A DNA stretch of 64,000 nt, taken from the NCBI RefSeq assembly GCF_964204645.1, contig NC_134032.1:7738275-7802274 (forward strand), read 5' to 3'. The translations under genes and the position numbers were made by a program. This document shows, in pieces, positions 21,040-63,904 of the stretch. Position 1 is the first letter of the stretch, and every line of letters starts with the position of its first letter. Below the pieces are notes generated by a model, which was not told the DNA's origin, searched no databases, and was given only the letters and a program-made list of their open reading frames with translations. This stretch comes from Tubulanus polymorphus (taxonomy: Eukaryota > Animalia > Nemertea).

Positions 21040-21103
21040 ACTTTTGACATCAATATCAGGCACTCCTTTATCCTGACTCAATTAGCATTGCGTTATTCGC
21101 GGT

Positions 21104-39165: not shown

Positions 39166-40095
39166 TCAGTTATTACTAATTAGATAAGATTTAAGGGATT
39201 TGGTGAAAGTATTTAGTTGACTTATAGATTTTAGTTTATTTGGCAGTGCATTCCAATGTTTAGGTCCTTGAATTTTGATAGAGTTAATTCTGAGATTCAG
39301 TTTAGCAAACTCGATGTGCAGGTTTTTGGGTCGACGTGAGGACCACCTATTACAAGTAACATTGCGAAAATAGAAAAACTCTTTAAAAACTGAGGGCAAC
39401 AAATTATGTAACTGTGAAAAAACAAATGTGACCAATTGAAGTTTATAAATATCATGCAGTTTTGGAATACCCAATTTCTTAAAGATCGGCGAGGTATGCT
39501 CGAGCCAATCCAAGCGTGTTATAATCCTAATTGCCTTCTTTTGAAGTACAAGTAAAGGTTGTAAATTCGAAATACAAGCGTTCCCCCAAATGATATTGGA
39601 ATATTGCAAATGTGAATGAACAAAACAAAAGTAAAGATTTTTTAACACATCAGAAGGGACGAAATGCTTGAGCCTGTTGAGGACCCCAATACCCCGTGAT
39701 ACTGTTTTACATATATGGATGATATGGTCTTTCCATGTTAGTCTCTGATCGAAAATTACTCCAAAAAATTTTGCGTTATCAACACGTTTTATTTTTTGTC
39801 CACCGAGGAAAAGATTGAGATGGATATGGGGTTTAGAACCGAAAATAATAAATTGTGTTTTGCAAATATTAACAGAAAGCCTATTGGCTCTGAACCATTG
39901 TAGTAGTTTATCTAATTCCGAGTTCAATAAAAGTTCTAATTCGTGTGGCTTTTTACCACTTACAAAAAAATTACTGTCATCTGCAAATAATATAGATTCC
40001 AGTAGTTTACATGAAGATGGGCAGTCGTTTATATAAAATAAGAAAAGCAAAGGTCTTAAAATTGAACCCTGGGGAACCCCTGAAATTAAATTAGC
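39166..40095 (-). pseudogene. LINE ORF2, RT C-terminal half
   Basis: GVPQGS, LFLFYIND, FADDS, KFFGVIFD, LQKKAIRII, HTSPIFKKL. The listed ORF 39166-40308 runs on into Polinton TIR sequence. Confidence 0.95.
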
Positions 40096-40101
40096 AGTGT
40101 T

Positions 40102-40325
40102 AGTAGTATAGCTATAAGGGGGTTCTGGCACAGTAGGCAAACTAGGCAAACTTTTAGGCAAATTTGGCAAACATTTATGCAAATTGTGCAAACTTTTTAT
40201 GCAAATCCGGCAAAGTTTTTGGCAAACATTTAGGTGAATCCGGCAAATTTGGCAAACGTTTAGGCAAAGTGACATGTGATTTCGGCAAACATTGGGTGAT
40301 GTCGGCACACTTTCTGGGAAACTCG
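40102..40325 (+). repeat. Polinton left TIR with GGCAAA iterons
   Basis: Reverse-complement match to 53854-54044, with iteron copy-number differences. Confidence 0.95.
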
Positions 40326-40418
40326 TTGGAATTCTGGATAAGATTTTAGGTAGTATTTTGTGTTATTTCCTTTTGTGATGTATTTATCGTTATTGTTTTA
40401 TTTGCTTGAAATCAGCTG

Positions 40419-40578
40419 GTCACGTGAGGTAATTTTAAAATGTCTATTGTTTTATTGATTTTCTGCGGTTTTCGCGGTAAAAATTCTATGAACTGAGTAA
40501 TTAATCTCCAGATGTGGGTCAGATGTGACGTCATTTTAGGGTATATAACGTGGGATCTTTAGGGGTTGGGTATCATTC
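40419..40578 (+). promoter_or_regulatory. Left-end Pol II promoter (E-box, CRE, TATA, Inr-like)
   Basis: CACGTG ~40421, TGACGTCA 40526-40533, TATATAA 40542-40548, TCATT ~40573, ATG at 40591. Confidence 0.65.
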
Positions 40579-40590
40579 CTTCGCTTGGCC

Positions 40591-41354
40591 ATGGATGACT
40601 TCAGTACTCCGCTCCTGACGAGAACTATGACGACTCCTAGTGCTCCGGCAAAGAGACCGCGTAAACTCAATTTTAAGAATTTAAAGTTGGATGTTGATAT
40701 TACGAAAATTCAAGGTACGTGTGTGAAAATTTCTTTTTCCGGATTTATTTCGAGTTATGTTATGAAGTGATTTTTAATTTAGTTTTTGTTTATTTAGATG
40801 TACAAAAGAATGACGTTTACGTGAAAACTGATGACGGTCATCACTACTTGGGAAATTCAATTTTCGCGAAGTCGACTGAATGGGAGGGTATCAAACGAAT
40901 TGATATACGAGCGCATGAACTCAGTGATGATTTCAGGATCTATCCGATGAAACGTGGTATCAGCTTACATCTCCAGGAATGGGTTCATCTTGTGTGGAAT
41001 AGGGAAGGAATAAATAGTGCGATCCAGTCATTTGTCAATAACAATACGGTGGAACATTTCCAAGTTCACATTGGTAGGAACCGTTATGTAACTGTTTTCA
41101 AGCGTTTCAATGAGATAATCGTTGATATACGTTATTTCTGTTATGACACTGAGTCTGCGCGTAAAATCCACACGAAAACTGGGATAGAATTATCCGATAA
41201 ACAGTGGGAAAAATTGTCGACTATTCCTTTCGCCAATTTCGAACCCGAGCTTGCTGAGATGCGTCCATGTATGTTCAATGAAGATCATCAGAATCAATTA
41301 GGAGCTTTGGAGTGCGTATACTGTAATCCTCAACCGGTGTTTCAAGTGGAATAG
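40591..41354 (+). CDS. Tandem PC4-domain ssDNA-binding/coactivator-like protein; exons 40591-40714 and 40798-41354
   Basis: Two PC4 repeats (RIDIR...KRGISL.LQEW and IGRNRYVTV...VDIRYF...KTGIELSDKQWEKL); in-frame GT..AG intron 40715-40797; NLS-like PAKRPRK; C-terminal C/H/CxxC cluster. Confidence 0.85.
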
Positions 41355-41812
41355 TGAAAATATAACAAAGTAATATTTTAGTTTTTAAAATCGAAAAATG
41401 TAAAATTTATTAAATGCATATGGGAATACAGTAAAAATATGGGTTACGTGTCTTATCGTCGGGATGGGGGGGGGGGGGGTATGTACGCACACGCATATTA
41501 GATACCAACTCTGGAAGATAATATTGAAATTGATTTTTCAAAAAATGTATACGAGTGAAGTAAAACCGAAATTAAATGGTTCGCCGAAAAAATAAAATGA
41601 AAATATCGTTGAAAATTTAATGTTTTTAAACGAAAACTAAAGTTTGAATTATTATGTTAAAACTTTTTTCATGAAGGAGAGTATATATTACAGCTTTGGA
41701 AAACTTTTATAAATATTAATACAATGAAAGTGATGTAAAACCAACTTTGAATGTTTCGACGGAAAATTAAAGATTTTGATAGGTTTATGTTATGAAATAA
41801 TTAAAATAAACG

Positions 41813-41817
<5 letters not shown>

Positions 41818-41878
<61 letters not shown>
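41818..41878. repeat. (TA)n microsatellite
   Basis: About 30 TA units between the convergent PC4 and pPolB 3' ends. Confidence 0.98.
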
Positions 41879-41879
<1 letters not shown>

Positions 41880-41910
41880 CATAAGTTTGTTGTCTGTTCT
41901 AATTATCTAT

Positions 41911-44900
41911 TTAATCTATGGGAATTTCACGATGGCCATAAGCAAGAGTGCTTACGCCATCGTCTAAAATGTACCGCTTATCGTCGTAAGGTGATAAACC
42001 GACTTTATTCAGATGGACGGAATGAATTTTATGATTAAAGCTCCGTATGGAACGCATGCCGGTCATGAGGATAGATTTCTCCGTTATACATCTAATATAA
42101 TTATCATGCGACACGGACTGTTTGACAACGTATTTCGCAACGCCTTTTGCTGTCTTCTTCTCCACAAGAGTTCCGTCGTTATCCGGAGAAAGATATACCA
42201 TCGAGTACATCTTACTCCGCAAACCACAGAACTCTTTGATGGGGGAAGAATTGGTTTCATCCTTGAATTTGCCCAGAACATTTTTGTTGTTGTCCGAAAA
42301 CAAAGGATGACCAGTGGGATAGGCTGAGAAGTCGAACTGGTCGGAAATCTCCGCCATATCCGCGTACAAATCGTCGGTGCGAATAGCGTATGTCAAGCTG
42401 TCCGTATCGGTGAATAGGAGTTTGGCATTATCGCCATAAATTGCTTTAATTGACCCGTAATGAAATTGGTACATCAAAGTTTTACTAATGTCTAGAATAG
42501 CGAAACCAAGATACACGGGTTTATCGAGGGTGATCTGTATTTTTTGCTTTTTAACCCCCACAACATTTTCTGAAATTACATTCCATGAAATTGTAGATGG
42601 CTTCGCTAAAGCTCTTCTCAATTTATTGGGATCATTTATAATTTGGTAATTTAGCCTATGGCGAATATTCTCCATAGTCTTACCGAAACTGGCATTGTTC
42701 AAAAGTTTGTATAGATCCCTCTCAAAATTGGTTTTCGCCAGTTTTCGGTAATGGGTATTCAAACGAATGTATGGGGCCATCCATGCCGACTGAGTGAAAT
42801 ACAAAACCCGGTGAATTTGTGTCAATTTCATACCAAGTTTCAGATAAAGTTTGAGGTTCCTGTAATGAATAATATAGTTTTTCTTATTTCCAAGATTGGG
42901 AATAAGCTTGTGTATCTTGGTTTCGCTTAAATACAAAGATTGAAATAATTCTTTTTGATATGGTGAGAGCATATCCTCACTCACCGGCATGCGTTTCGGA
43001 GCTAGGGGAAAGTCATTGTGCAGGTCATGAAGCTCGGCACCGTATTCAAGGTCAACCTCGAGGACCATACCAAAAGGGGCGTCATCAGCCAAACCAATAA
43101 TACTCAGGGCAGTGGGCCAAAGAGGGTCAACGGGTTCCAACCACCTAAATCCGCTCACAGGTAGGGCCTGTGACATAGCCCAACCGTATAAATTATTCGC
43201 ATCCAAATACATAATATAGGATGATTCCATTGAAGGGTCATAATCGGCGAAATACTTGTTGTTAGCCTCGAAATATCGATGGGTAACAACAGAAATCCCG
43301 CCTCTTATGCCCTGTTCGATAAAAAGATACATGTTAATATCTGTGAACAATTCGAGTTCGACCTTGGTTAATTTTAGACACGCGTCCCACGAATAGCCGG
43401 GGAGAGTATAGTAGTGGGTGGGGTCTAGTTTATAACTTGCATGGGCGAAGGTTCTGAATTCCTCAAAAATATCGGCTAATAAAAGTACGTCCGTGCGCAA
43501 ATAGATATCGTGATATTCGCCCATGTCGGCAATACTGAATTGTTCCCAGATATTACGCGCATGTTGATAATCGCTATCAGAAATTTTGGTATCACCAAAT
43601 TTCTCAGCACCGGTCATGTATTCATATGGATATACCCCCTTGCGTAACAAAAGTTCAATTCGATTCCTGGGAAATTCCGAGTTTAAATTAATGGACTTTT
43701 CCCTCCCAGATTTCACCAAATTATCAGTAAGTGTACCGAGGGCGCTGTTTAGGAATGCCAGCGAATCGATGAAGCGCAGGGGGCCAAGAGTAAATGAAAT
43801 AAATTTCTCGGTGTTGGTCGGGATAATTGAAATCTTTTTACCCCGAAATTCCACATCACCGAGTGATCTTATTATCTCGTGACTGTCGTAACCTTTAAGG
43901 TTATGAAAAACAACAGGCACGAAATTTGGTACTTTGTAGGCTAAATTACACGTATTACAAGCGGGACCTCTATATTTGCCGGTTATGTGATCGTGATCCC
44001 TAAATTTTTTCCCGATAAAGATGACCTAAAATGCGCTTCATCTTCATCGCTCATGATCAAAGGTTGGGGATTTTTGTACTCGTTCAAGATGTCCTCAGCC
44101 GTTTCGAGGAGGTTTTGGAGGAATGTCCTCATAACATTTCCCCCCCTATACAACACTGAAGGTTTCGAATAAGGGGTTTCTGGTCCGACCACTTTATAAC
44201 AAAAACCCGATGGTTCATGTACCTGATAGCGTGAAGTCCAAGATTGGGTCTGGTCCCGGGAACATCCTTGAATGGGAGATAAAAACATTTCGAAATCAGC
44301 GTATATGATATAAGGGACTTTATGCTGTTTAGCGACATTACCAAATTTCAAAATATTCTCATTTTCATCAGGGAGTACAGTCCTCTGGATTCCATGAATA
44401 CAGTACTGGTGATGAGTGTTTAGAATATCTCGACTTGAAAAAGTGTTTAAACACTTAAAACACCAGTATGACCGAGCCTTATGCCTGTTTATATGGTATA
44501 AAAATCGATTCAAATCTTTTATCAGGCAATAATGGGAATCATCGCCCAATGAAAGCTTTAAAAGGTTTACATGTTTCTCAAGTGGTTTATCACTCAAACG
44601 ACGAGGGAAAATATTACCATCTTCTTGGACGAAAACGTTAACTGATATATCGTTCTGTCTTTCGAATATCGGTATTTGCTCTTCGGTCATCGGATAATTG
44701 ATACCATTCATGTCCAATTCATCCTCATACCGTTTATACTGTGATACCCGTTGGGGGTTCGCATCCGCCGGGTGAAGGTGGGCGAGAATACACCAAAGAA
44801 AACACTTGTTGTCGCGATTTTTTATGTTTATCACCCCACCTCTAGAAATAATTATACGAGGTGAAGGGATAAACAAACCTCCACCCAGTGGAGCATAAAT

Positions 44901-45794
44901 ACCAGTGTGGAGATCTAGTGCAACCACGTGGTCGAACACCCAACCGGAACCATTAGTATTATACTGTTCCATTAGTTGGATTAACCTAATTTTCGCGTGT
45001 TCTATTTGCTCATCAAAGTGTATTTCGTTGAGAGCAGTTTGACATTCGAGGGTGAAAAAAACTCTTTTCACTTCGGGGTTGTCCCCGACATGCTTCTCGA
45101 GTACGACTCGAAGACTGGCGAACCATTTAATACCCCCATGCAAGCTTAAATCTTGCTTAAGCAGATGGAGGATGTTCGGTTTTAAATCATTAAAAAATTT
45201 CAAAAGATCAAATTTATTATCTTCCGAAGCTGGTATCTGATAGCGAGATACATACCCCTGCAACACATCGCCGACCTGTACGTCCATCCACCCTCGAATA
45301 GTTTCATCCAGTTCCAACTCTTCCCACTCGAATTCCTGTGGGATTGCTAGACCTGGTTGGGGGTGGATGTTTACGTTTCCAACCCCCGGTGGTGGTGGTG
45401 GAGGGGGTACATCGCCAGCTTCTGCTACCACTGGTTGGGGGGCGGCGGCGGGAGGTGCCCCAGGTTCAGCAGATTCTTGTTGGGGGGCGACGGGAAGTAT
45501 CCCAGGTCCAGCAGCCTCTGGTTGGGGAGCGGCGGGGGGTTCCTCGTCATCTCCATGTCCCCCTCGACACCTCGGGAAATGATCCCTTCTTATATACACT
45601 TCCGAAGCAAACTCCCGACCGCACTTCGGGCACGCCGGTTTCGGCCCTCGGTGATTATCGCGCATGTGCTTCGAGCGCGAACACGAATGCCGGAAAACTT
45701 TGTCACACTCGAAGCACTGGTAGAGCCTGCCCGAAGGCAGGCCGGGAGCCGAACCCTCCTCCGCAATTCGTTCGGTTATCTGTTGTTGGGCCAT
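41911..45794 (-). pseudogene. pPolB: Protein-primed family B DNA polymerase with N-terminal C2H2 fingers and an EndoVII-like insert; frameshifted near 44010
   Basis: IYADFE, FHNLKGYD, YLDANNLYG, KLLNNASFGK, FTDTDS, K..AKGV; RDHDHITGKYRGPACNTCNL bridges the two listed ORFs; an apparent in-frame deletion at FGDTK/ISDSDY. Confidence 0.95.
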
Positions 45795-45884
45795 CTGAAA
45801 ATGAAAAAAAAAGTAAGAACCCTTTAAGTGTGTATTGATAGTGGAACGATTTCGCTTTAATCATTTTTTCACCCGAAATCAAGG

Positions 45885-46506
45885 ATGGAGGTTATTGATT
45901 TACCGCCGATCCAGTTGCAAGGATGGTTTACATCGATAATAAATGGGATGACAGGTATTGGGAAAACTGTATTTACTAGAAGATTGATCGAGGAGAAAAT
46001 GTTTGACCCATTCCCCGATCGTATAGTTTGGGTATACGTTGAGGACCAGGAATTATATCACGATTTGAAAGGCGTTGAATTTGTTAGAGGATTAACCGAG
46101 GAACTCTATGAAAGCTTATCCGGTTCCGATACGACAAAATTACTCATATTAGATGACATCCTAAACGACTGTGATCCGAAATTATTGGAAACTATTTTCA
46201 CTCGTGGAAGTCATCATTCTAATATCGCAGACTCTTTTCCCGAAAGGGCCCCACTTTAGGACCATTTCGCTAAATACGCATTACATAGTTCTATTCAAAC
46301 ACCCAAGAGATCGACTTCAAGTAAAAACTTTGGCCATGCAATCAGGGTTAGAAAAATCGCTCGAGGAGGCTTTTGCCGATGCGACTTCTATTTCGCCACG
46401 CGGGTATTTGTTTTGTGATTTTAAACCGCAAACACCCGATAAGTGGAGATTACGTACACGAATATTTCCGAGTGATCATATCTATTATCGAATTAAAAAT
46501 CATTAA
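45885..46506 (+). pseudogene. A32-like (FtsK-HerA) packaging ATPase, frameshifted near 46225
   Basis: Walker A GMTGIGKT, Walker B LLILDD, FTRGSHH, then RTISLNTHYIVLFKHPRD in the next frame. Confidence 0.92.
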
Positions 46507-46567
46507 ACGTTTGGTTGGTGGCGTCATGAATCTGATAAATGAGATGAAAGAAAACGTGTGTACTACA

Positions 46568-46888
46568 ATGGGAAAGCATTCACACGTGCGAGATTTTGCG
46601 CCTCACCTAAAATTGCTGTGCGAGGGAAATAAAAAGATGCGTATCGCTATAATATCTTCTTCCCCGAATAAACTAAGCAATGTTATATGCGAAATTTGCA
46701 TTAATTCATTAAGAGGAAATATTAATCACAGCGAATCGGATAAAAAGAAATTGAAGCGACATAAAAAGTGGATCAGAATTCTCGCTAATAAACGCGTTCC
46801 GATTAAATCGAAGAAACCTTTAATAATACAGAAAGGCGGATTTCTAGGGTTGATACTGAAAGGTCTAGGACGTCTACTGGGCTTATAA
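46568..46888 (+). CDS. Small basic Polinton virion protein with C-terminal amphipathic peptide
   Basis: ICEICINSLRGN, Lys/Arg-rich, ends QKGGFLGLILKGLGRLLGL. Confidence 0.75.
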   Translation: MGKHSHVRDFAPHLKLLCEGNKKMRIAIISSSPNKLSNVICEICINSLRGNINHSESDKKKLKRHKKWIRILANKRVPIKSKKPLIIQKGGFLGLILKGLGRLLGL

Positions 46889-46889
46889 A

Positions 46890-47627
46890 ATGAAGAATGT
46901 CGATAAACTTTTCGTGGTTCCAGAGTCATTCATCCCGATAATCGAGAGATTATCCTCAAATACGCGAGGAAAAACCGATTCTTCGAGTACACCAAAGTCG
47001 AGCGATGATAGAGCACGAACCGTCGAAAGTCATATGACCGACGTTCTACAAATGAATGGTATTGGAGATGACGTAATACTAAAACTTTACAATAATTCGC
47101 TAAATAAACTAATGAAAATCGAGGAATTGGCAAGGGATTCAATAGCGAATAAAGTCATACCGTCGGCTGAGGATACATCGCGTTCCGAGAGAATTGTCGA
47201 AAATAAAACGAGTATTGATCGAGAGATTCTGAATAATGTTCCGAAAAACTATAGAAGGAAGGCAGAGCAGTTGCTGCAACGAATCAAACGGTTTCCGGAT
47301 ATACTTTCTTGGACTGACAAGGGCGAAATTATTTTCAGGGGGGTAAAACAGAATGATAGTAATATTTTTGATTTAATGAATCTGTGTATGTCGCCGAATA
47401 AAGATGTTCAACTGAGTGGTATCGAAGATTTCATCTCGGCATTGCGGGAGATAAGCGTCCCACAGACATATATCCCTAATAAAGTTATTAGGAATATGTT
47501 AACGAATAATCAACGTACCTTATTTAGTTCACCGCCTTCAGAGAGAAAAAGAAGAAAGATAACTGTGAAACGTGGATCCGATGTTGAATCTGAAAATGTA
47601 GATATTGAGAACTGGATATATTTCTGA
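46890..47627 (+). CDS. Conserved Polinton protein of unknown function, 245 aa
   Basis: Intact ORF with VP..Y..KA..LL...SW..KGEI...SNI.DL and a C-terminal W..F, recalled from other Polintons; NLS-like RKRRK; AATAAA near 47820. Confidence 0.7.
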   Translation: MKNVDKLFVVPESFIPIIERLSSNTRGKTDSSSTPKSSDDRARTVESHMTDVLQMNGIGDDVILKLYNNSLNKLMKIEELARDSIANKVIPSAEDTSRSERIVENKTSIDREILNNVPKNYRRKAEQLLQRIKRFPDILSWTDKGEIIFRGVKQNDSNIFDLMNLCMSPNKDVQLSGIEDFISALREISVPQTYIPNKVIRNMLTNNQRTLFSSPPSERKRRKITVKRGSDVESENVDIENWIYF

Positions 47628-47911
47628 CCATCGAAAAGTCGGGTGAAAAGGATAAGTTTTCAATTTGTTTACAACCTACCTCAAATCAGTAATGACTACG
47701 TAGGTTGTTTGTTTGTTTGTTTGTTTTTGAAGCCGAACAGCACTTTTGATTTGATACTGTCTGAACCTGAAAAGAAATGTAATTCCTCATTTATTTTCCC
47801 GTTGTACATTTTGTGAAACAATAAAAATATATCAGATAAATTTATGGGGTTTATTTTTCAATTTCTACATCGTTCATTAAGCCTTTATCCCTCGGGCACT
47901 GAACATCGAAA

Positions 47912-48436
47912 ATGATTGAGGTGGTTAATGTAGTAGCGACGGCAAACCTAAATTCAAACTTGAATCTCGATGAATTGGCTAAAACGATGCACAATGTCAT
48001 TCATAATCCACTTAAATTTAGCGCGCTCACTATGAGACATAGGCGTATCAAAGGTACTTGTCTATTCTTCACTACTGGGAAAATGGTCTGCAATGGAACA
48101 AGATCTATAGCGGAGTGTTATACCAGCGTGCGACGATTTGCTAGGCTAATACAGAAAAAGGATATCGCTGTGAAGTTAACTGACTTCAAAATTCAGACTA
48201 TGACCGGTGTTGCGAAAACAGGGGTGAAAGTAAATCTAACTCTTTTGAATTCATTAATTGGCGGAAGTTATAATCCGGAGATCACTCCTAGCCTCATTTA
48301 TCGTCGTGGAAGTATTTCGTTCATAATTCAACATAAAGGGAGTGTAATTATAAGCGGGTGTAAATCATTAAATGAAATAATATCGGCACTACCGGATATT
48401 TTGTTTAATATGCACGTGTGTGAATATACAGCATGA
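47912..48436 (+). CDS. TBP: Divergent TATA-box-binding protein homologue (core domain only), Polinton-encoded
   Basis: Colinear with the TBP core: NVVATANL, NP.KFSAL.MR, FTTGKMVCNG, RRFARLIQK, DFKIQTMTG, YNPE..PSLIYR, G.VIISG.K; intact and intronless. Confidence 0.93.
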   Translation: MIEVVNVVATANLNSNLNLDELAKTMHNVIHNPLKFSALTMRHRRIKGTCLFFTTGKMVCNGTRSIAECYTSVRRFARLIQKKDIAVKLTDFKIQTMTGVAKTGVKVNLTLLNSLIGGSYNPEITPSLIYRRGSISFIIQHKGSVIISGCKSLNEIISALPDILFNMHVCEYTA

Positions 48437-48523
48437 GCTCGTGCTTTCCACGCTCGCAATCAATGATTACTGTGGACTGTAAAGGGATGAAAATCTCTTG
48501 CTGTCAATCGAAAATAGAGGATA

Positions 48524-49606
48524 ATGTCGACTCACGTGAGCCCCCGCGTGGAAAAGATATTGACGGAACTGTATTACAACCCCGAAAATCCAAGTGCATT
48601 CGGTGGCATAAATGCTTTGTATCGTGCTGCAAGGCTAACCGGGGAGAAGATCAACATTGAAACTATCAAAGTCACAAGAAGCATATACTCTACATCGTCC
48701 AACTCGTAAACGTTTCAAAAGGAATAAAACAATAGTTTCCGGTATTAATCAACAACATCAAATCGATTTGTGTGATCTATCGAATTTATCTAGATGGAAT
48801 AAAGGGTATAGATATTTGCTCATGTCAATCGACGGTTTTTCTAAAATTGCCTATGCTATCCTCATCAAAACGAAAAATAGTCGAGAAGTTTGTTCGGCGT
48901 TCGAGAAAGTTATAATTCAAAGTCGTATGAAGAAAGTACAGAGCGATAAAGGTACCGAGTTTTTAAACGTTCATTTCGCTAAACTGATGAAAAAGTACGG
49001 AATACCTCACTTTACAAGTGAAGATACAGTAAAATGCAGCATTGTGGAAAGACTTATACGAACGATAAAGGGGAGGTTATTTCGCTATATGACAGCACAT
49101 ACCTCGAAAACTTACATTAACGTTCTTCCACAAATAATGAAAGCTTATAACGAATCGTATCATCGATCGATTAAAATGTCACCGAACCAAGTAAACGAAT
49201 CTAATGAGAAATTAGTCTGGGAGAATTTATACGGAAGCGAATCTCTTATTAATAAACAATTCAAGTACTCTGTCGGCGATGCGGTTAGAATCGCGAGATA
49301 TAAGAAGGATTTCGATAAGGGGTATTTGCCCGGTTGGTCACACGAAATATTTACAATCACTAAACAGGTTGCACACAATCCACCGACCTACCACATAGTG
49401 GATCAAATGGGCGAGCGAGTTCAGGGCCAATTCTATTCCCATGAATTGCAAAAAGTAATTAAAAGGTGGATGACGTCTATCGAATAGAAAAGATTATCCG
49501 TAGTCGGGGGCGAGGAAACAATCGCGAGCTGTTCATTAAGTGGTTGGGATACCCATCGAAATTTAATTCTTGGATTCCAGCGCGTGACCTAAAGAAAGAT
49601 GCGTGA
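48524..49606 (+). pseudogene. Retroviral-type DDE integrase with C-terminal chromodomain; frameshifts near 48670 and 49465
   Basis: LYYNPENPSAFGG, AYTLH, QIDLCDL, QSDKGTEF, IVERLIRT; tail YRIEKII...FIKWLGYPSKFNSWI. Confidence 0.93.
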
Positions 49607-50406
49607 CTTTTATTTAACATTGTTAAGCGATGGAAGCATGGATGAATTTCCCGATAATTCTCAAAAGAAGTTTAAAGTGAAACTTAGGGGGACGATTAAT
49701 CTGGATGGAAACTGGGAAGTTGCGCTAGTGCACATAAATTTCAACTGCGAATTCGATAATATAACAACCGGTGAATTCTACGTCGACTCTGGAAAAGGAG
49801 AATGGAGCGAGGCGTATAACGTTAGCGGCGGGATATATAAAAATATCGAATCACTGATAAATCAAGTGAACTCTGCTTTAATACGCACATCGGCAACGAA
49901 TAGAATAAAACTATTTCTATAATGAAATAAGTCAGCGAGTCTCGATCAGATTATTCGCAAATGCAAAAATTAAGTTCAAAAACGATCTAGCTTGGGTGTT
50001 TGGATTCCCTTCGATGCACGTTCTCGACGCTAATATTTTCAACGAAAATGATACGGACACTAAAATCGTACGAAAATCAAATACAAACTCGAGCTATGTC
50101 GAAGTTATAGCGTCTAGACCCGTTGACCTCATGGCTGATAACCACAACATCTTGATCTATTCAGAGTTAATTCAACATCAACAAGTCGGGCATGATAGCG
50201 CACCATTATTAAGGATTGTAGGTGTAAACGATATAAATCAAACAGTTATAGATCGAGAATTCAGAAGACCTTATTATCTACCTCTCAGGAGTAATCGACT
50301 GGATGTTATTGAAATCTATATGAACAAAGATAGCGGATCCCCGCCCATCTTTAAAAGGGGAAAAGTCTCCCTCGTATTACATTTTAGACGGAAATTGCAA
50401 ATATGA
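49599..50406 (+). pseudogene. Minor capsid (penton) protein; 1-bp frameshift near 49915
   Basis: FYLTL.SD.SM..FPDN, WEVAL, IYSELIQ.Q.VG...APLLRIV, LVLHFR. Confidence 0.85.
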
Positions 50407-50750
50407 AGACTGAATGCACAATAGATCAAGACGCGTGTTGTGATTATTATTTACGACAGGCAGGCGGCGGGAATGATTTCTACCACGGTCGACCGGTACA
50501 AAGAGGGGCCGGTATCGGCTCTATCCTCAGCGGATTATTCAGGGGGGCGATCCCATTGTTTAAGACGATTGCAAAGAAAGCAGCACCACATATAATTAAA
50601 GCCGGTGTTAACACTATAGGTGACGTCATCGAAGGAAGAGACTTAGGAGCCCCAATAAACCGAGGAAACGTAAAGTCAGATCAAAGACGCATAAACCACG
50701 GCAGGCAAAACGTCAGCGCAGATTTAACGAGACTTTGGAAGCGTATTAAT
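50403..50750 (+). CDS. Polinton core/virion protein with Gly-rich candidate protease sites; C-terminus probably disrupted
   Basis: YYLRQAGGG...QRGAGIGSILSGLFRGAIPLFK; a basic tail RKRKVRSK... appears in a shifted frame. Confidence 0.7.
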
Positions 50751-50776
50751 TGTTCATTATTTACACCATTGGCAAC

Positions 50777-52096
50777 ATGAGTTTGAAAGTTCACAAAGAC
50801 TCGCAACCCGCTTTGAAGAGTGAATTGGACATCTTCTCACTACCGATGACTAATATTACGATGGAATCTGCGCATTACGCCAAATATCAACCGTTAGCTA
50901 CGATCACCGACAGTGGAAATATCGATTTTCTCATAACCGGGAACTCTCAACATTATCTAGATTTGAATCACACGTGGTTAGATGTCGCATTCAAAATTGT
51001 AAAGGGTGACGGCAGTCCAATGATTAATGGTAAAGCCGACGATCCGGTGGCTCCATTAATAAATTCCGGTCAATCACTATTCAGTGATGTCGAGGTTCGA
51101 TTCAACGATAAATTAGTTAGCAATGGAATGGACCTACACCCGATTAGAGCCGCTATTGAGAATTTGATATTCTGTCAATCATCGTCGAAACCGGGGTGGA
51201 TGGAAAGCGCTATGATATATAAAGACGAAGCCGGGCGTATGAACGATACAGATCCTAGAAACGCAGACTGTAATTACGGGCTAAAAGAACGCTATGATTT
51301 ACTGAAAAATTCAAACCATCTTACACAAGTACAACTACGATTACACAGCGATGCGTTCGGATTAGATAAACTATTGCTATCAAATGTAACGGTAAAAGTT
51401 AAATTGATAAGGAGTAAGGATGCGTTTTGTATTATGTCTCCGAATCCCGAAGTGAAATTTAAAGTAAAAATTGAAAACGCCACATTAAATGTGAGACGAG
51501 TTCAGCTGAGTCCTTCAGTTCAACTTGCCCATGAAAAAGCTTTGTCTACTAGCAATGCAAAGTATCATTTCGTAAAAACAAGTATTTTTCCGGTGAATAT
51601 CCCACGCGGAGTACGTAGTGTTATAAGAGATAATCTGATAATTGGCAATATACCAAGGAATATAATTATCGCTTTCTGTTCGGACGAATCGCTGAGTGGA
51701 AGCTATGGCAAAAACCCGTTCGACTTTAAACACTATGATATCACTAGAATTGTGGTTTCCCTCAATGGTTCGCAAGTTGAATCAAAGGTTATAAATTTCG
51801 AGTCGAAAGACTTGTGCGAAGGTTATTTCTCGTTATTCACGGGAACCGGTATTCTATACCAAGATAAAACAATTGGAATAACTAGAAAAGATTACGCTCG
51901 CGGCTATTTCTTAACTGCGTTTGATTTGACACCCGACTTTGGGTTCACTGACCTGGCTATCAGCAAAAAAGGATCGCTTCGAGTAGAACTGGAATTTTCA
52001 AAGCCTCTCCCCGAAAATATTAATCTATTGTTATACGCTAACTTCGATGAGGTTTTAGAAATTACGAAAGATCGAACAGTTGTAACAGATTTTTAG
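50777..52096 (+). CDS. Double jelly-roll major capsid protein, 439 aa, intact
   Basis: KSELDIFS.P.T, YLDL..T.L, SLFS.V.V, G.Y.KNPF.F, AFDLTPD, LRVEL.F; position between penton/core genes and protease. Confidence 0.9.
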   Translation: MSLKVHKDSQPALKSELDIFSLPMTNITMESAHYAKYQPLATITDSGNIDFLITGNSQHYLDLNHTWLDVAFKIVKGDGSPMINGKADDPVAPLINSGQSLFSDVEVRFNDKLVSNGMDLHPIRAAIENLIFCQSSSKPGWMESAMIYKDEAGRMNDTDPRNADCNYGLKERYDLLKNSNHLTQVQLRLHSDAFGLDKLLLSNVTVKVKLIRSKDAFCIMSPNPEVKFKVKIENATLNVRRVQLSPSVQLAHEKALSTSNAKYHFVKTSIFPVNIPRGVRSVIRDNLIIGNIPRNIIIAFCSDESLSGSYGKNPFDFKHYDITRIVVSLNGSQVESKVINFESKDLCEGYFSLFTGTGILYQDKTIGITRKDYARGYFLTAFDLTPDFGFTDLAISKKGSLRVELEFSKPLPENINLLLYANFDEVLEITKDRTVVTDF

Positions 52097-52105
52097 ATAA
52101 AAAGA

Positions 52106-52573
52106 ATGTTGTATACCGATGAATTAATGAATATTTGAAGTAATGATACGTGCGTAAGTAAATTGTTTAAAGGTGTTTATCCGGCTAATCGTCTGCCCGT
52201 AAATCCTGTATACCCTAGTATTTTCATTGTTAACTCCCAAAATAGTGATAAGAGCGGTGAACATTGGATTTGTTTGATATTATTCGCAAATAAACGGGGA
52301 TATTACGTAGACAGTTACGGACAAAAACCAGAATTCTATAATATCTTATTGAGAAACTATTTAGATACGCACTGTCATTGCTGGGAATATTCTCGAATTA
52401 GAGTCCAAAGTTTGTTTAGTACGAATTGCGGTTACTATTGCATTTATTTCATAACACTTCTTTCACACGGAATCAGTTTCCCCGAAATATTCAGTATTTT
52501 CAGTAAAAACGATTATGAATATAACGATTACTACGTTAAAAATTTCGCCAATAAGTATTTCATTAGAATGTGA
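52106..52573 (+). CDS. Adenain-like cysteine maturation protease (N-terminal frameshift)
   Basis: GEHW, VDSYG and Q.....NCGYYC catalytic motifs; ATG at 52106 is out of frame with the listed ORF; AATAAA near 52644. Confidence 0.9.
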
Positions 52574-52940
52574 AATTCAATTTGTTTTTAAATTTCAAAC
52601 TATGTACAACAATTTGTAAACGATCAGTCATTGGGAACATTCAAATAAAAACAATGTAGATTTAGATTTGAAAAAAAAACAAGAATTTACCTTATAGTTG
52701 ATTAATCGATCCGATGGATTCCTCGTGTTAGTTCGATGTCTAGGGCTCGCTGAAGCGGTTGATACCAGGAGTGCAAACGGAAAAGGTCGAGTCGAGGTGC
52801 TTCGCATTTTTAAAAACCCTCACAACAATGGAATGAACAAATCATCCCGTAATCCAGTCAAAATACTCTCCAAAAATGCGCGAACACATTTCATTGGGTT
52901 ACACTCACCACGTGATGAGACCCCAACGATTCTTGAAACG

Positions 52941-53131
52941 TGATCGATGTTATCCTTTCCCTCCGTTACGGAGGGCAGAAGATTTTCCCAACCTCAGTTT
53001 TACACAGGGACCGTCATCAAAGCTTTTGTCATATTGATCGATGTTATTTATCCCTTCCCTCCGTTACGGGGGCAGAAAATTTTCCCAACCTCAGTTTTAT
53101 TACAGGGACCGTCATCAAAGCTTTTGTCATA
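52941..53131. repeat. Imperfect tandem duplication, 2 x ~94 bp
   Basis: tgatcgatgttat...cagggaccgtcatcaaagcttttgtcata occurs twice. Confidence 0.95.
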
Positions 53132-53722
53132 CACACCGCAATTCAGCTGATCGTTGCATTATCCAGAAACATACAACGCGTCCTGTAGCATACTTTTGAA
53201 AATAAAATTCAGGTGACCACCAATCGTACTCTCCGAACCGAAGGTCAACAATACGTTAATGAGACCATAATAATCAATCACGGATACAAATAAAAGATAG
53301 TGGAAATACGCATCTCGTATCAATACCATCGAAGGAGAGACCTGTACTTAGAAAAAATGCGATAACCGTGAGAAAATATAGTTTCTCATCACGATATCAA
53401 TTTATCAAAGTAATTCATTCTAATCATTATATTCAAATCATTACCCTCTCAAATTACCACCGGACGCACCTTACTCAGCACAATTACAATTCATACATTC
53501 AGATAATTATATTTAACCCGTTAACCTTTAACTTCATTACTACACACAAATCACCGCTGTGTTACCATATTTCATAGATAACCCTCATTGTACATCTTTT
53601 CCCCCTCCTTAAATTCACAGTAACTAATCAATTATTATTACTTTTTATACATTGTTTTATCAGTACTTCCATTACAATCCCTTACCCCTACCATATGATG
53701 ATAATAATAAAGACAGCTCCCC

Positions 53723-53840
53723 AATACACCCTTAAATTACGCAACATCTGACTCCAGAACAAACATTTTTACCCAAGTCTAAAGAAATTTTTCCACGAAA
53801 ACACAAAAAACAATACAAATTTTGTCACCTCACATAACCA
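53723..53840 (-). promoter_or_regulatory. Right-end inward-facing promoter-like block related to the left one
   Basis: Minus strand gtcagatgttgcgtaatttaagggtgtatt versus left gtcagatgtgacgtcattttagggtatata (24/30 identical). Confidence 0.55.
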
Positions 53841-53853
53841 ACCGGTTCTTGTC

Positions 53854-54044
53854 CGAGTTTCCCAGAAAGTTTGCCGACATCACCCAATGTTTGCCGAAAT
53901 CACATGTCACTTTGCCTTAACGTTTGCCAGATTTGTTGAAAACTTTGCCGGTTTCACCTAAATGTTTGCCAAAAACTTTGCCGGATTTGGAAAAGTTTGC
54001 CTAGTTTGCCTACTGTGCCAGAACCCCCTTATAGCTATACTACT
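53854..54044 (-). repeat. Polinton right TIR
   Basis: Ends ...CCCCCTTATAGCTATACTACT, followed by the TSD AGTGTT. Confidence 0.95.
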
Positions 54045-55810
54045 AGTGTTGGAAATATGTTTATTATATTTTACGGCCTGTTTTCGTGCTGATAGATAAT
54101 TTTTGAACCAAATTAAAGATTGGCCGCGTATTCCATAATGCTCCAATTTAGCTAAAAGGATTTGATGGTTAAGCGTTAAGACCCAAACAGTTGTCTTTTT
54201 CCAGGTAGTTTGATATTTTGTCTAGAATATAGGACAAAGCCGAAGAAGTGGAGTGCTTCTTCCTGAAACCAAACTGATGATTACTTAGAATATTAAATTT
54301 TTATAGGAAAGACGACAGCCGATTGTAAACAAGTTTTTCAAGGATTTTTGAAACCGACGGAAGAACCGATATTGGCCGGTAGTTACTAAAAAGTGATTTG
54401 TCACCATCCTTATAGATAGGAGTGACGAGGGCAATTTTAATTGGCTAGGCACAATGCCCGTTAAAAGGCTGCAATTGAAGATATGAAGTGGTTGCGATAT
54501 TATTTCTATAATAGATTTTAGTAGTTTCATACTTATCTTGCAACTGCCACAGGAGGATTTATTTTTCATTTTTGAAACTAAAGTTACAATTTCTCACCCA
54601 GAAAATCATTGAAATCATGCGTGGAACTAGGAATATTGGATTCGAGCTTCGACACAATATTTACAAAGTAATCATTGAAATGATTGGCAATATCCTGTTC
54701 ATCGGATAAAATCTCATTATCATATTTAAAATCAGCATCAAGCCTGTCTTTTTTACCCTTTTTAAGTAATGAATTTACAAGTTTCCAGGTTTCTCTTTGA
54801 TTATGCTTACATGAGAAAAATTTTTCTCTGTTGTAACCATCTTTACATTTCTTAATTACAGAATTTAAAATATTACGATATTTACAGTAATTTTCTTTGC
54901 TTTGTAAAGACCTGGACTTTGTATACTCTCTGTATAATTTTTCCTTACGTTTTATAGAACATTTAATTCCAGACGTGATCCAAGGTTTACTAATGCTACC
55001 GGATTTTGGAGAAATATACTTATAAGGAAAACAAGCTTCATAACAACTATCTACAATATTATAGAACTCATTGTATGAGATTTCGGGGTCGTTACTATTG
55101 TAAACACACTGCCAGTTACTAGTTAAAAGACAGCGTGAAAAATGGTCGATCGATCTAGGGTTTGTATTACGGATCTGAATTTTAGGCGTCGATGACTAGC
55201 CTCATGTAAAATTCCAGTGATAATAGCAAAAACGGGGCAGTGATCCGTGATATCAACCAAAAATACACCGCTAGATATCTGGAATTCTACATGGAAATTT
55301 ACTAAAATGTTATCAATAATGGTCGCTGAGTGGTCAGTGACCCGAGTAGGTAGCGGAGCAAAAGAATTAGAAATTGCTTCGTTTATAAATGAGTCACACA
55401 TAGCACTATTCCCATAATTACCAAAGTCTATATTGTAATCACCCATCAAAATAACATTGAGTTTCTCATTTGAAATTGTTACCATAAAGGATTCAAACTC
55501 ACTTAAAAATTCATTAAGATCTGATTCTGGTGGTCGGTAGATCACACCTATTAACATCTTTCTAGAATTTTGACCACTGATCTCTATGAATAAGTTTTCA
55601 GCTATAGATAGATCTTCCCTAATTTTGAAGGGAATTGAGTCGTTGATCAAAAGACCAACTCCGCCCCCTCCTTTGTTAGATCTGCTACAGAAAATACTAG
55701 CGTAATTAGGAAGGTGGTACAGAGACTCGTTAGGAACATTGCCGTCGGTCCATGTTTCTGTTAATCCAATAACAGAAAATGTATAGTTTAATAAATTTTC
55801 GCTTCTTTGG
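54045..55810 (-). pseudogene. LINE ORF2, APE endonuclease and RT N-terminal half (frameshifted)
   Basis: IGLTETW, GGGVG, IYRPP, MGDYNID, PTRVT..SATIIDNI, DITDH; then YRPISVLP and YGIRG....WFKNYLS.RKQ. Confidence 0.92.
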
Positions 55811-57100
55811 AGTAACGAAAACATCTGCATCCGATTCAGACTTCCATGCATCCACGAAGTTTTTGGAGAGTGCAGATTTCCCAAGGTCGTTTAGATGTAT
55901 ACCAGTGTTGTCACTGATATTATAGAAACGCTCTCTTATCGCTCCCAACGGTTTGAAAACGATATCATTGTTTATATACACGATGTTCTGTTTAGAACAG
56001 AAATTGTCCATAAATGTATTCACCGTTTCAGATGCAGCATTGAAATCTGCAGCAGCAGCAGTGACAGCTTTCCTAGGTATTATGCTAGAAAGAGCTATTT
56101 TTGCATTTAGATAATGTTCGTGTACTTTAGCCATCGCGACTGTCAAATTCATTTTCGCGGTGTCGATTTCTGACTTATAACGGTTAACGTCATTGGTACC
56201 GAGGTGAACCACGACGTAAGTAACGGAGTCGGGCTCAGGGATCTGAGAGTCGGCTTTGTCGAATAGCTGCTCGACGTTCTCTGCCGGTGCTCCAGATTGA
56301 TGTATCACGATTCCGTCAGGATACTTTAAGTTTCTCATGTTAGAATCTCCGATTATAACGTTTATGGAAGATTGTTTACTCGGTTCCGGTGCTGTCGGTT
56401 CCGGCACTGGTTCCGATTGCATTGTTGGTGATTTTTCGACTGATTCCGTATTATTACCCTCATCGGGATTTAATTGGCTGTCACGAGGTTTACAATTTAA
56501 CTGACAGTCACGAGCTTTATGGTCTAATGCTCCACATTTGAAGCATTCGATTGATCTTGTTCTTTATTTCAGGTGACATTCGTATGAGCTGTGATCACCT
56601 AGGCAATGTTGGCAACATATACCTGTACAGTACAAACGAACTTTAAAGCCATGTATATTTGTATACGTCGGTATTACATCGGTGACTTTTTTAAGTTTAA
56701 GATACCGCGTACCGGTGAAAATATCAGTACCTTTTATGGTACCTTTCTGATTGATCCGTCAACTTACTCACCGAATTTACTTATAAAGTTCGCTATGGTT
56801 TTATCATCCATTTCTATCGGTGCATCCACTAACTTAACAGTCATATAATTCTCATCAACATCCATAAAGTTAATAGACACTCCATTAATAATTAATCCCG
56901 ACAATCTCAAACTGTTTTTACTTTCCAAATTTGCTGTTGTTATAACACAGTCTTTTGCGGTTATTTGGACAGAGTAAATTAAACCTACGTCCATTTTGTG
57001 TCTTATTGCCTCGATAATTTGCTGGTGGGATATTTTATTTTCACTTCCTAACTCCTGTTATCCAAATTTGATGGACATATCTCTTGTTAATCAACTCATA
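55730..57100 (-). pseudogene. LINE ORF1: RRM-like N-terminus, two CCHC knuckles and SGNH/GDSL esterase
   Basis: TVKLVDAPIEMDDK.I..F.SKFG; CQHCLGDHSSYEC and CFKCGALDHKARDC (~56500-56615); IGDSN, HLGTND, GIHLN..G. Confidence 0.8.
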
Positions 57101-58492: not shown

Positions 58493-60074
58493 AACAACAT
58501 CTTTTAATCTAATTTATTTTATATATTTTAACTATAAAAATGAGTGAGAGTAAGGTATTAGAAATATTACATCTAATATATAAAAATCAACAGAATATTA
58601 AATCAATTATTATGCTTTCAGGATTAGTTTCATTTTCAGTTTATTCATTAAAACAGCTGTTAGATTTCTATGATAATTGCAAAATTAGATAAGCCGAATT
58701 AAAAGATAACATTAATTATCTATCAGATAAATTGAATAATATTGTTGTGAAATATGCAATAAAAAGTATAGAAATAAAAAGAGTTTGAGAAATCATAGAT
58801 ATATTCATGAATTAAATGATAAATTGTATAATTCAAATTGAAATATGATATTTCAATTAATACCCCCTGTGTCTTTATTGTCTTTAGTAGTCTTAGTACT
58901 TTTAGTACATAAAGAATAAATCTTTATTCTATTAGTATTTTAAAGATAAAAAGAGTTTGAGAAATCATAAATACATTCATGATTTAAATGATAAATTATA
59001 TAATTCAAATTAAGTGATTCATATATGATATTTTAATTCTTTACATAAACTAGAATAATACAAGATGATACATACTTATTCAACGTAAAGTTTTTCTAGT
59101 TGAATTCTAGTAAAATGTAAAGAAATTTAAGTAAACAAGAATTGAATAGATTCAACAAGAATTATAATAAGATTCTTTAATAATACTAACCTATTCAATT
59201 CTAATGTCTTTCTATTTGAATCTATTCAAAATATTATTTAATCCAGTGAGCAAATAGAAACAATAACTAGTCTTAATTTAAAGAATTATATCATAATCTA
59301 GTGCTGCGTAAAGAATATGATATTCATCATTACTGAATCAAATTTATATGATGAAATTTAAAAATATTATATAATTCAAATTATAAAACTAATTTATATA
59401 TCTAAGTACTAGATGTACGGGTAAGAATCCAAGAAAGTAAGACAGGTACGAGAGGTGCGAGTAAGAATCCAAGAATTCTTACTTTCTTACTCGTACCTCT
59501 AGTACATAGATATATAAATTAGTTTTTATGAAAATTATACATATAAATAGTTATAATATAATCTATTTTTTATTTTCATTAAGTGAAAACATATAATTTA
59601 TTCATTTTTATATTCACATAGTGTGCGCCTCCAAAAATTTGGTTATTTTGTGTCATTGGCTGTAACTTTTTCATTTTTTAAATACAATTTAGAATTTTTC
59701 ACTGAAGATATAGTTTTATCTGAGGATATTGTTGATACTGCATTCGTAAAAATACATTCTTAGAATCGCGCGTGGCCACCGGTTGATCTTGAGTCTCGCG
59801 CAAAGCGCACGCGAGTGGTTGACCGTCGATTTTCTACAGTAGACTCATATCAACTCGAGTTCATCGGGACCAGAACTAATTTGCCACCGGCTAAGTGGTT
59901 TATTACCTTCCTATTCTAGGTATGTACCAGTATCGTGGTTCAAGTCCAGAATAAGTCAAAATAGTTCCGTGGAGGGTTTTCTTAAATGAGGTGAGTGGTT
60001 CGGTTTCAAATTGCTGTCAGAAACCTGATTTTCGACCATTTGTCGAGTTGACAATCGGCAATCAGAAACCAATC

Positions 60075-60380
60075 ACCCATAGCATCAATATCACCCTCAC
60101 AATCGCGGCATCTATATCACTCTCACAATCACATCTATATCACCCTCACAATCACATAATCTATATCACCCTCACAATCACAGCATCTATATCACCCTCA
60201 CAATCGTAGCACAATCACAGTATCTATTTCACCCTCACAATCACAGCATCTATATCACCCTCACAATCACAGTATTTATATCACCTTCACAATGACAGCA
60301 TCTATATCGCCTTCACAATCACAGCATATATTTCACCCTCGCAATCACAGTATCTATATCACCCTCATAATCACAGCACT
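60075..60380. repeat. Minisatellite, ~26-bp unit, inside an inverted-repeat element (~60004-60505)
   Basis: Unit tctatatcaccctcacaatcacagca; flanks gaaacctgat..tcgaccattt and aaatggtcgactatcaggtttc. Confidence 0.9.
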
Positions 60381-62582: not shown

Positions 62583-63904
62583 ATGGCGGCGGCGGACGCG
62601 GAAGTCAGACGAAATCGTCTGAAGAATGTTGTCTTCAATTCAGTTTTGCAGCAGTCTTTAACGCGTCCAACGGACACGGGTATATAAGTTCTGAAGAGAA
62701 AAATAAGTGACTGTGACGCCGATTTTTTTCGATGATTTGAAACTGCGAGGAATTGAGATATTTGAAAGATGGGCGGAAACCTCGTATATACAGAATTATC
62801 TGTCAACGGTTGCGAGTTTGTACTCACCTGGTGACTTCAAATCACGGTTCAGGATAAGCAGACAGACATTTGCCGTACTAGAAAATCACATTACGCCTAT
62901 TCTTGCTGCATCTCGGACAAGAAATTCGGATATATCGTATCAGAAGCAAATACTCATTTTCATATATTACTGTAGTACCCAGGATCCATTGATTAGAAAT
63001 GCTGATATATTTGGCTGTTGTGAAGCATCAGTGTTTAGTATTATTGGTAAGTCAAATGATCACGTTATGTACAATATGAATAGCAGACAAAGTTACATCA
63101 ATTCCTGTAAGCAGTAGGCTATGTTCCATCTCTTTGTCATTTCAGCTAAGTTGAGTCAGATCATCAACAAGTATTTGCTGAAGAAGTTTATTAAATGGCC
63201 AACTGGTGATTATGTTCAACAGGTGTTCAATGGTTTCGAAGAGAAACAGCATTTTCCAAAAGTGATTAGGAGCACTGGACGGTACTCACATCCCTATCAA
63301 AACACCAAAAAAAGATGGCGAAGTCTACATTTAGAGGAAAAAGTTTCATTCAATCAATGCCACTGCTGTTTGCGATCATCAAATGCTGTTCAGGTTTGTG
63401 TTTGTGGGCTGGCCAGGATCCACACATGATTCGAGGGTGTTCAAAAATTCAAAACTAGGAACTGCTTGTGAGGACTTAGAAAAAAGAAGTGGTTTGTTTC
63501 CTAACAATAGCCATATACTCGGTGACTCAGCATATGAGTTGAATGATTACCTCTTGACTCCATTTAAAGATAATGGGGCTCTCTCTCAAATCGAGAGAGA
63601 CTATGATTTCTACCATAGTTCGACAAGAATGAAAATCGAGAACACTTTCGGTTGTCTTAAAGGTCGCTTCCGTCGCCTTGAATATATTGACATGCATGAT
63701 CAACAGAGACTTGTTGACTTGATACTAAGTTGTTTTGTGTTACACAACATCTGTTTGCTGAACCATGATGCTGTAGAAGAACAACTCAATGAAGACGTCG
63801 AGATGGAGGAACAGGCTCATAACGAAATTGAAAATGATGATGAAAATGTTTCAGCTGTTGCCAAGCGCAGAGCCATTTCTGTCATGTTGTCATTGTACAA
63901 TTGA
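62583..63904 (+). pseudogene. Harbinger (HARBI1-like) transposase, second family; intron 63047-63145
   Basis: FKSRFRISRQTF, GALDGTHIPI, GWPGSTHDSRVF, LGDSAY, R..IENTFG.LKGRF; internal stops and a frameshift. Confidence 0.9.

Follow-up and report, generated by a model that had tools for sequence, protein, structure and literature searches.

The open reading frame (ORF) at 47912-48436 (+ strand) of the window, the whole 64,000-nucleotide stretch of Tubulanus polymorphus DNA analysed here, encodes an intronless TATA-binding protein (TBP) core that is borne by a Polinton. This Polinton TBP is real and conserved, and it is a variant of the virus-encoded TBP strategy. It belongs to a widespread family of short TBPs in which the DNA-binding face of the second repeat has been remodelled, and a putative role of that family at late promoters is well supported by sequence comparison. 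The reading preferred for this copy, somewhat likelier to be true than false, is that it works with the RNA polymerase II machinery of the host as a late-gene promoter factor and that it reads the 5' half of the box less strictly.

The 174-residue product matches the Pfam TBP family (PF00352) over two stretches with an E-value of 3.5e-33 and aligns to solved TBPs over residues 4-163. It has no N-terminal extension, an in-frame stop lying just before 47903, and its alignment to TBP cores shows no intron-like gap. An AlphaFold2 model built from a 37-sequence alignment reached a mean pLDDT of 97.3, with TM-scores of 0.95 against human TBP (1cdw) and 0.94-0.97 against eukaryotic TBPs. Equivalent residues are numbered as in yeast TBP. 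Alignment to TBPs in the PDB agrees at every residue with the sequence-only reading that preceded this work, which had also described the missing extension and intron. Specifically, repeat 1 retains N6, F36 and F53 (yeast N69, F99 and F116), repeat 2 carries T96, T125 and Q140 in place of N159, F190 and F207, and the TFIIB stirrup YEPELF reads YNPEIT, with N121 replacing E186 and E123 preserving E188. Repeat 2 shows the further changes V161T (T98), V203S (S136) and L205I (I138) and keeps I194; its DNA face is made up of T96, T98, T125, S136, I138 and Q140. Repeat 1 is near-canonical, with T49, L51 and V59 preserving T112, L114 and V122. Measured against a canonical TATA-binding TBP, a protein that binds and bends TATAWAWR, it retains two of the four intercalating phenylalanines and one of the two central asparagines.

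The TBP ORF is enclosed by a 13,943-bp Polinton at 40102-54044, which is bounded by terminal inverted repeats (TIRs) and a target site duplication (TSD). The left TIR (40102-40325, + strand) begins with AGTAGT and is preceded by the TSD AGTGTT at 40096-40101, and the right TIR (53854-54044, - strand) is followed by the same TSD at 54045-54050. The two TIRs are identical at 176 of 179 aligned bases. The AGTAGT termini and the 6-bp duplication AGTGTT on both sides are the hallmark of a Polinton/Maverick (adintovirus-like) element, on the family definition that we assume. The element interrupts a LINE on the - strand (39166-40101 and 54045-56422), presumably CR1/L2-like. This LINE encodes a GDSL esterase in its ORF1 as well as an APE endonuclease and a reverse transcriptase, and its ORF2 is split by the Polinton. 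Other copies of the element were observed through reads and contigs of samples X1 and X4. An empty-site allele, in which 40095 is joined to 54045, is present in three reads of X4 and one contig of X1; the insertion is therefore polymorphic and probably young. X1 also contains the TBP region identical letter for letter and may be the sample from which the window derives. A segment of about 98 nt is duplicated between the protease gene and the right TIR (window 52900-53100), and one unit is missing in some reads and a contig (joint 52949/53048). Elsewhere in the window (63121-63904, 20367-21069, 24986-27174 and 60057-60404) there are a Harbinger-type DDE transposase fragment, 34-nt and 26-nt tandem arrays and a 750-nt triplication.

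The gene set expected of a Polinton/Maverick is present, with the DNA polymerase recognised by motifs, the integrase, ATPase and protease by Pfam, and the capsid proteins by position and homology only. A double PC4-domain gene lies at 40591-41354 (+ strand; PF02229, E 4e-15, two stretches). It has a canonical TATATAA about 49 nt upstream, and GT/AG sites indicate that it is probably spliced with a short intron. The protein-primed family-B DNA polymerase (PolB) occupies 41911-45794 on the - strand in two overlapping frames with a break near 43983-44025; its ORFs have zero polymerase-family matches in the family library, and the name rests on the motifs YLDANNLYG, NNASFGK and TDTDS. A polypyrimidine tract and CAG immediately before the PolB ATG (45795-45825, - strand) suggest a spliced 5' leader. 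The PolB start faces that of the packaging ATPase head to head, with 90 nt between them. The ATPase (45885-46506, + strand; Pfam) is frameshifted near 46213-46238 and is followed at 46526-47627 (+ strand) by a pair of ORFs, roughly 120 and 245 aa long, that are conserved in Polintons; they have tblastn matches in the related locus L006 and no assigned function. The first of these, ORFa (46526-46888), has a GGFL motif near its end and then an amphipathic-looking tail, an arrangement that we take to resemble a protease-cleaved, membrane-active virion protein.

Beyond the TBP gene lies the rve integrase (48524-49594, + strand; Pfam), with two frame breaks near 48642-48670 and 49460-49472. The region 49599-52096 (+ strand) holds a putative minor capsid gene, split near 49909-49922, a small core-like ORF and an intact major capsid gene of 439 aa; these ORFs have no match in the library, and their names are inferred from order, size and homology to the ORFs of relatives. 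An adenovirus-type maturation protease (52106-52573, + strand; PF00770, E 1e-4) contains an early in-frame stop. In total, PolB, the ATPase, the integrase (twice), the minor capsid gene and the protease are broken. TFIIB had no match in about 35 of the 101 stop-to-stop frames of at least 50 aa in the element, a search that a very divergent TFIIB could escape.

The Polinton-borne short TBP family met here has a recognisable signature, consisting of a length of 160-190 aa, N159 changed to Thr or Ser, V161 changed to Ser or Thr, loss of L205 and Polinton neighbours. A first set comprised 157 trimmed matches and this protein; 42 carried Thr, Ser or Cys at position 96 and were 162-210 aa long. A quick tree of 93 of the 158 rows (all family rows, rows shorter than 200 aa and every third longer TBP), built without TRF2, TRF3 or giant-virus TBPs, placed 41 of 41 T/S/C96 rows on one branch (SH-aLRT 95). 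Enlargement of the set by profile search gave 149 non-Asn-96 sequences among 158 aligned. T96 (N159 to Thr) occurs in 145 of the 149, a frequency that is partly built in, since position 96 served to delimit the set and the seeds of the search were themselves proteins of this kind. Ser, Thr or Ala stands at V161 in all 149, and L205 is kept in only 3. The repeat-1 phenylalanines are widely retained (F99 in 137, F116 in 144), and an aromatic residue is lost at F190 in 21 and at F207 in 33. Both repeat-2 phenylalanines are lost in only four members, namely this protein, P0001, P0152 and P0163. P0001 is the closest protein, 53-54% identical over an alignment without breaks, and has T96, S125 and Q140; the Phe losses are thus shared beyond this copy. 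In a five-row subclade F207 is gone from all five rows and F190 from two, a pattern consistent with stepwise loss in which F207 went first. The asymmetric saddle proposed by the sequence-only reading therefore holds in one sense, as remodelling of repeat 2 is family-wide (N159 to Thr in 145/149), but the double Phe loss is the extreme of a subclade (4/149).

The same data dispose of a recent retrocopy of host TBP that happened to land in the Polinton. Such an origin would fit an intronless ORF with about 38% identity to cellular TBP, but the quick tree groups the protein with Polinton-borne TBPs and about 150 relatives share its signature. The retrocopy is refuted by the tree, by the family signature and by the Polinton gene context of the relatives, and its remaining probability is negligible.

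The family extends beyond this genome. One metagenome scan found 18 TBP loci, all from other subclades. An integrase match accompanies TBP in 15 of them and capsid matches do so in 1 further locus, which makes 16 of 18; in the other 2, PC4 is the sole such neighbour. Among nine relative loci tested, PC4 stood beside TBP above the Pfam cut-off in eight, and this adjacency suggests an early transcription module. Viral contigs queried with this TBP, the major capsid protein, A4, the integrase alignment and A1 yielded no confirmed locus; queries A3 and A5 returned only five distant loci at 23-33% identity, and a search of genome contigs for the DNA of close relatives found none. In molluscs, family members are filed as host 'TATA-box-binding protein-like 1' or as uncharacterized (six Mercenaria and three Pinctada records). 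Multi-copy members (P0220, P0296-P0302 and P0262) occur in Mercenaria mercenaria and Pinctada imbricata under such host TBP-like or uncharacterized annotations. Outside the T96 branch, P0030, P0070, P0129, P0130, P0135, P0149 and P0161 are short divergent TBPs that keep N159, and they possibly form a second viral TBP group.

The TBP ORF is intact beside the frameshifted ATPase and integrase, as had been pointed out from the sequence, but as evidence of selection this observation fails. The coding DNA of the element, about 10.4 kb, has 5-7 breaks; at that rate a 525-nt ORF would stay unbroken in 70-78% of cases, and in sample X4 a stop is found at codon 140 in 12 of 16 reads. Because intactness is about 74% likely by chance and because of the X4 stop, it is uninformative on selection. 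Near-identical X4 copies differ by four nonsynonymous changes, one stop and no synonymous change. Taken with the stepwise loss on the tree (F207 in 5/5 rows, F190 in 2) and the absence of a box from the element, they could mark a degenerating remnant, with the Phe losses reflecting relaxed selection in a lineage already losing function. These changes are probably ordinary decay after insertion, as in the other genes of the element, and a remnant appears very unlikely in view of the more diverged copies. Three diverged X1 contigs match parts of the TBP gene. Among the 16 differences listed for them, 10 are synonymous, where 21.5% would be expected (P 5e-4), with differences near the ends of the pieces unlisted (14/19 in the longest piece). 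The same ratio answers the dN/dS test proposed earlier for a retrocopy. No listed change falls in the codons for T96 and Q140, the T125 codon lying outside this comparison. Judged by these sequences, selection is visible in the diverged sister copies rather than in the intactness of the ORF.

The comparison with P0001 also argues against a remnant, in that 53% identity has been kept with zero breaks. Conservation is concentrated where DNA would be touched, as P0001 has the same residue at 23 of 31 DNA-face positions but at 68 of the 143 others (P 0.009); the 23 include 12 of the 16 positions of the remodelled repeat-2 face. The DNA-facing positions are those of TBP-DNA structures.

In relatives the Polinton genes carry a variant box, C[AG]TAAGA[AG], the canonical TATA counterpart of which is TATAAAAG. 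Of 18 integrase, minor-capsid, ATPase and ORFa genes, 11 have TAAGA at -32 to -46, against a background of 8%, and the motif stands at that distance from none of 18 TBP and PC4 genes and none of 10 pX, major-capsid and ORFb genes; these counts cover 12 loci, after exclusion of 6 near-duplicate or fragmentary ones, with gene groups that were picked after the data had been viewed. Extra boxes are found 76-124 nt before the major-capsid starts in L006 and L017. C[AG]TAAGA[AG] is strongly biased in strand: across 15 loci with a total of 49,765 nt, the coding strand has 40 occurrences and the opposite strand has 1. A blind motif search recovers the box in L006 (0/40 shuffles as strong) and ranks it first without significance in L019 (0.25); it was not recovered in three shorter loci. 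The packaging ATPase of L006 (5016-6172) has a C2H2-like zinc-finger N-terminus and is preceded by a similar small zinc-finger ORF, and each of the two has its own CATAAGAG box upstream. In 12 of the 15 loci of relatives, an Initiator-like TCA[GT]T lies no more than 60 nt from the start of the TBP gene, against a background of 10%.

The position of this box bears on whether the protein acts in transcription at all. The TBP gene sits among integrase and virion genes both here and in L017-L020, as would suit a DNA-binding role at the termini or in genome packaging. The relatives' box, 32-46 nt before start codons and on the coding strand, has the geometry of a promoter, and the TFIIB-side and TFIIA-side residues are kept in the family; a non-transcriptional role is considered extremely unlikely.

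The sequence of the box appears to track residues of the saddle in the relatives. The residue facing box position 6 is, as we assume, V122. Where this position is polar, 13 of 13 loci carry a G6 box, and where it is Val, 0 of 3 do so (L012, of only 1.1 kb; L020; and this element); the L020 integrase has CTTAAAAA at the box position. At box position 2, all 16 boxes that go with a TBP having H203 and N/M205 carry A, and 21 of the 24 that go with T203 and S/C205 carry G. The C-terminal repeat of TBP reads the 5' half of the box, and the yeast mutant TBPm3 (I194F/V203T/L205V) accepts G at position 2 (PMC1636458). The covariation is suggestive and falls short of statistical proof because the 15 loci amount to about three lineages with several near-duplicates. 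Host TBP excludes G at position 2 through its L205 equivalent, and any base is tolerated at positions 1 and 6 (PMC13566119). On structural grounds host TBP could accommodate the CATAAGAG form; therefore only the CGTAAGAA form is clearly private.

Altered promoter specificity, as proposed from the sequence alone, is thus upheld for the family, where the box is strand-biased, positioned and associated with saddle residues, but not for this copy, in which the box was not found. C.TAAGA[AG] does not occur on the coding strand of the 13.9-kb element, although its density in relatives predicts about five in the gene block. A profile of the box scored at most 3.4 upstream of the element's genes versus 6.9-14.6 for the training sites. 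De novo motif searches gave no significant motif after correction (0.38-0.78; gene block 0.43-0.50; whole element 0.075-0.63). The candidates ATCGAA, C[AT]TTAA, TTAAG, TAAAGGG and ATCAAAG did not survive correction, and a TAAGA at -71 of the ATPase was rejected because it overlaps a likely PolB splice branch site on the other strand. TAAA[AG][AG] is present at -32, -44 and -51 of three of eight genes (P 0.046, post hoc). A low-information NN-TAAA-RR site is predicted for this TBP because repeat 1 is close to cellular TBP and both phenylalanines of the 5' kink are gone. The box of this element is the weakest step in the argument. The TBP gene itself is preceded by an Initiator-like TCATT (47874-47878, + strand), 38 nt before its start and within the 284 nt that separate it from the preceding gene, with AATAAA farther upstream at 47820. 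The TCATT suggests that the TBP gene has an early promoter of host type.

An element without the box could also point to a protein that has mostly lost base reading and is placed on promoters by host Initiator or TFIID parts or by an element protein such as PC4, in the manner of TRF2. TRF2, without three of the four phenylalanines, works on TATA-less promoters (PMC8461331), and PC4 adjoins TBP in 8/9 relative loci. In this element PC4 lies 6.5 kb from TBP and repeat 1 is near-canonical, and such dependence on a partner is regarded as decidedly unlikely.

The surfaces that contact host factors are largely preserved. In cellular TBP a basic patch on helix 2 of the N-terminal lobe is common to TFIIA, Mot1, TAF1 and Brf1, and two glutamates are defined for TFIIB; viral TBPs lose this patch and are usually accompanied by their own TFIIB (PMC7221094). 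The patch is kept here (R74, R78 and K82), as is N28. Across the 149 members Arg is present at R137 in 147 and at R141 in 146; Glu is present at E188 in 140 and at E186 in 126, and both of the latter positions are acidic in 126. Because these residues are mostly kept and the scanned ORFs of the element gave no TFIIB match, the family seems tied into the host machinery rather than orthogonal to it. On the TFIIA side, the equivalents of E93 and R90 are changed in this TBP.

Such surfaces would also serve a decoy. A protein without stable promoter binding could sequester Mot1/BTAF1, NC2, TAF1, TFIIA and Brf1 through its intact N-terminal lobe and thereby dampen or redirect host transcription. The retained N28, R74, R78 and K82, together with the near-invariant R137/R141, form the shared factor site (PMC7221094), and the loss of both 5'-kink phenylalanines and of E186, with no box in the element, would suit this reading. 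A working promoter factor needs the same basic patch, however, so that the kept partner surfaces fit both equally. The altered E93/R90 equivalents speak against a decoy, and a pure decoy would have no need of a remodelled repeat-2 face conserved with P0001 (12/16) or of the cognate-looking box in relatives. The conserved face and the box favour a promoter factor, and the decoy is judged unlikely.

As a late-gene promoter factor, the TBP would be made early from a host-type promoter, would bind the variant box and would turn on the late genes for integrase, capsid and packaging by recruiting the host RNA polymerase II machinery to them. In this subclade its reading would be confined to the downstream half of the box, at a site of the NN-TAAA-RR type with a weaker or one-sided bend, and host TFIIA and TFIIB would probably stabilise a TBP lacking two phenylalanines on DNA. 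All four phenylalanines of KSHV ORF24 are needed for late transcription (PMC12529657), and a two-Phe TBP may for that reason not activate. The Asn at the E186 position likewise speaks against the late-factor reading. A broader proposal, possible though on balance doubtful, is that Polintons run a one-protein early-to-late switch in which the TBP and a private TATA variant co-evolve in each lineage under a natural specificity code, V203/L205 setting position 2 and V122 position 6. The TBP of this subclade would then be a natural one-kink form, able to start transcription although it has two wedge residues instead of four.

Polintons have no RNA polymerase, and the papers searched do not explain how the expression of their capsid genes is timed. 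If the late-promoter reading is true, a TBP of their own and a private box would give Polintons a minimal means of late transcription and would strengthen the case for a true viral cycle. In effect, the family offers a natural collection of TBP saddles matched to candidate boxes, in which long-debated questions of specificity and of the need for two kinks become testable, and it could yield orthogonal TBP-promoter pairs. In practical terms, TBPs of this Polinton family are filed as host TBP-like 1 or uncharacterized genes in mollusc genomes, where a Polinton context is presumed from family membership. In a literature search on TBPs or late promoters of Polintons, adintoviruses or Mavericks, with subscription papers and Repbase reports outside its scope, the one mention found was a 'TBP' gene label in MELD viruses with adintovirus-like PolB, in the legend of Fig. 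5, in a part of the paper devoted to non-animal datasets (Starrett et al., 2021, PMC8502044). The text accompanying that legend contains no residue, family or promoter analysis of this TBP, and a supplement to the paper has no mention of TBP or TATA.

Compared with cellular TBP (PF00352; 1cdw, 1ytb), the Polinton TBP shares the fold (TM 0.95), N69, F99, F116, the helix-2 basic patch, E188 and P191. It differs in lacking an N-terminal extension, in the changes N159T, V161T, F190T, V203S, L205I, F207Q and E186N, and in being carried by a mobile, virus-like element. The TBPs of giant viruses are likewise virus-encoded and divergent (BFVD matches at 10-23% identity). They lose the N-lobe signature, usually alongside a viral TFIIB (PMC7221094), whereas the Polinton family keeps R137/R141 and mostly E186/E188. 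TRF2/TBPL1 is also a short TBP-like protein that has lost intercalating phenylalanines. The analogy is loose because three of the four are missing from TRF2 (PMC8461331), in which Trp takes the place of F116 (PMC7221094), whereas the Polinton TBP keeps F99 and F116 and is stripped in repeat 2 alone. No TRF2-like sequence was present among the fetched proteins and PDB matches, and a single ESM Atlas feature match named TBP-like 1 serves as a lead only; by its residue pattern the protein is not a TRF2.

The system that it would most resemble in its working is KSHV ORF24, the TBP mimic of beta- and gammaherpesviruses, which acts at TATTWAA late promoters (PMC12529657). Both are virus-encoded TBPs with a more polar saddle, and in the proposed model both use a variant late-gene box and host RNA polymerase II; the variant box is seen in relatives, and a search of this element did not find it. 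ORF24, a large multidomain protein, binds RNA polymerase II directly as part of a six-protein complex and has no TFIIB glutamates (PMC12529657); proteins of the ORF24 type have an N-terminal domain for RNA polymerase II and an additional DNA-binding domain at the C-terminus. In contrast, the Polinton TBP is a bare core of 174 aa, most of its family retains the glutamates, and no complex of partners came to light. Finally, the Polinton family varies the same three positions as yeast TBPm3 (PMC1636458), and its T203 lineage has G at box position 2. TBPm3 was engineered and retains all four phenylalanines, whereas this copy carries I194, S203 and I205 and has no repeat-2 Phe.
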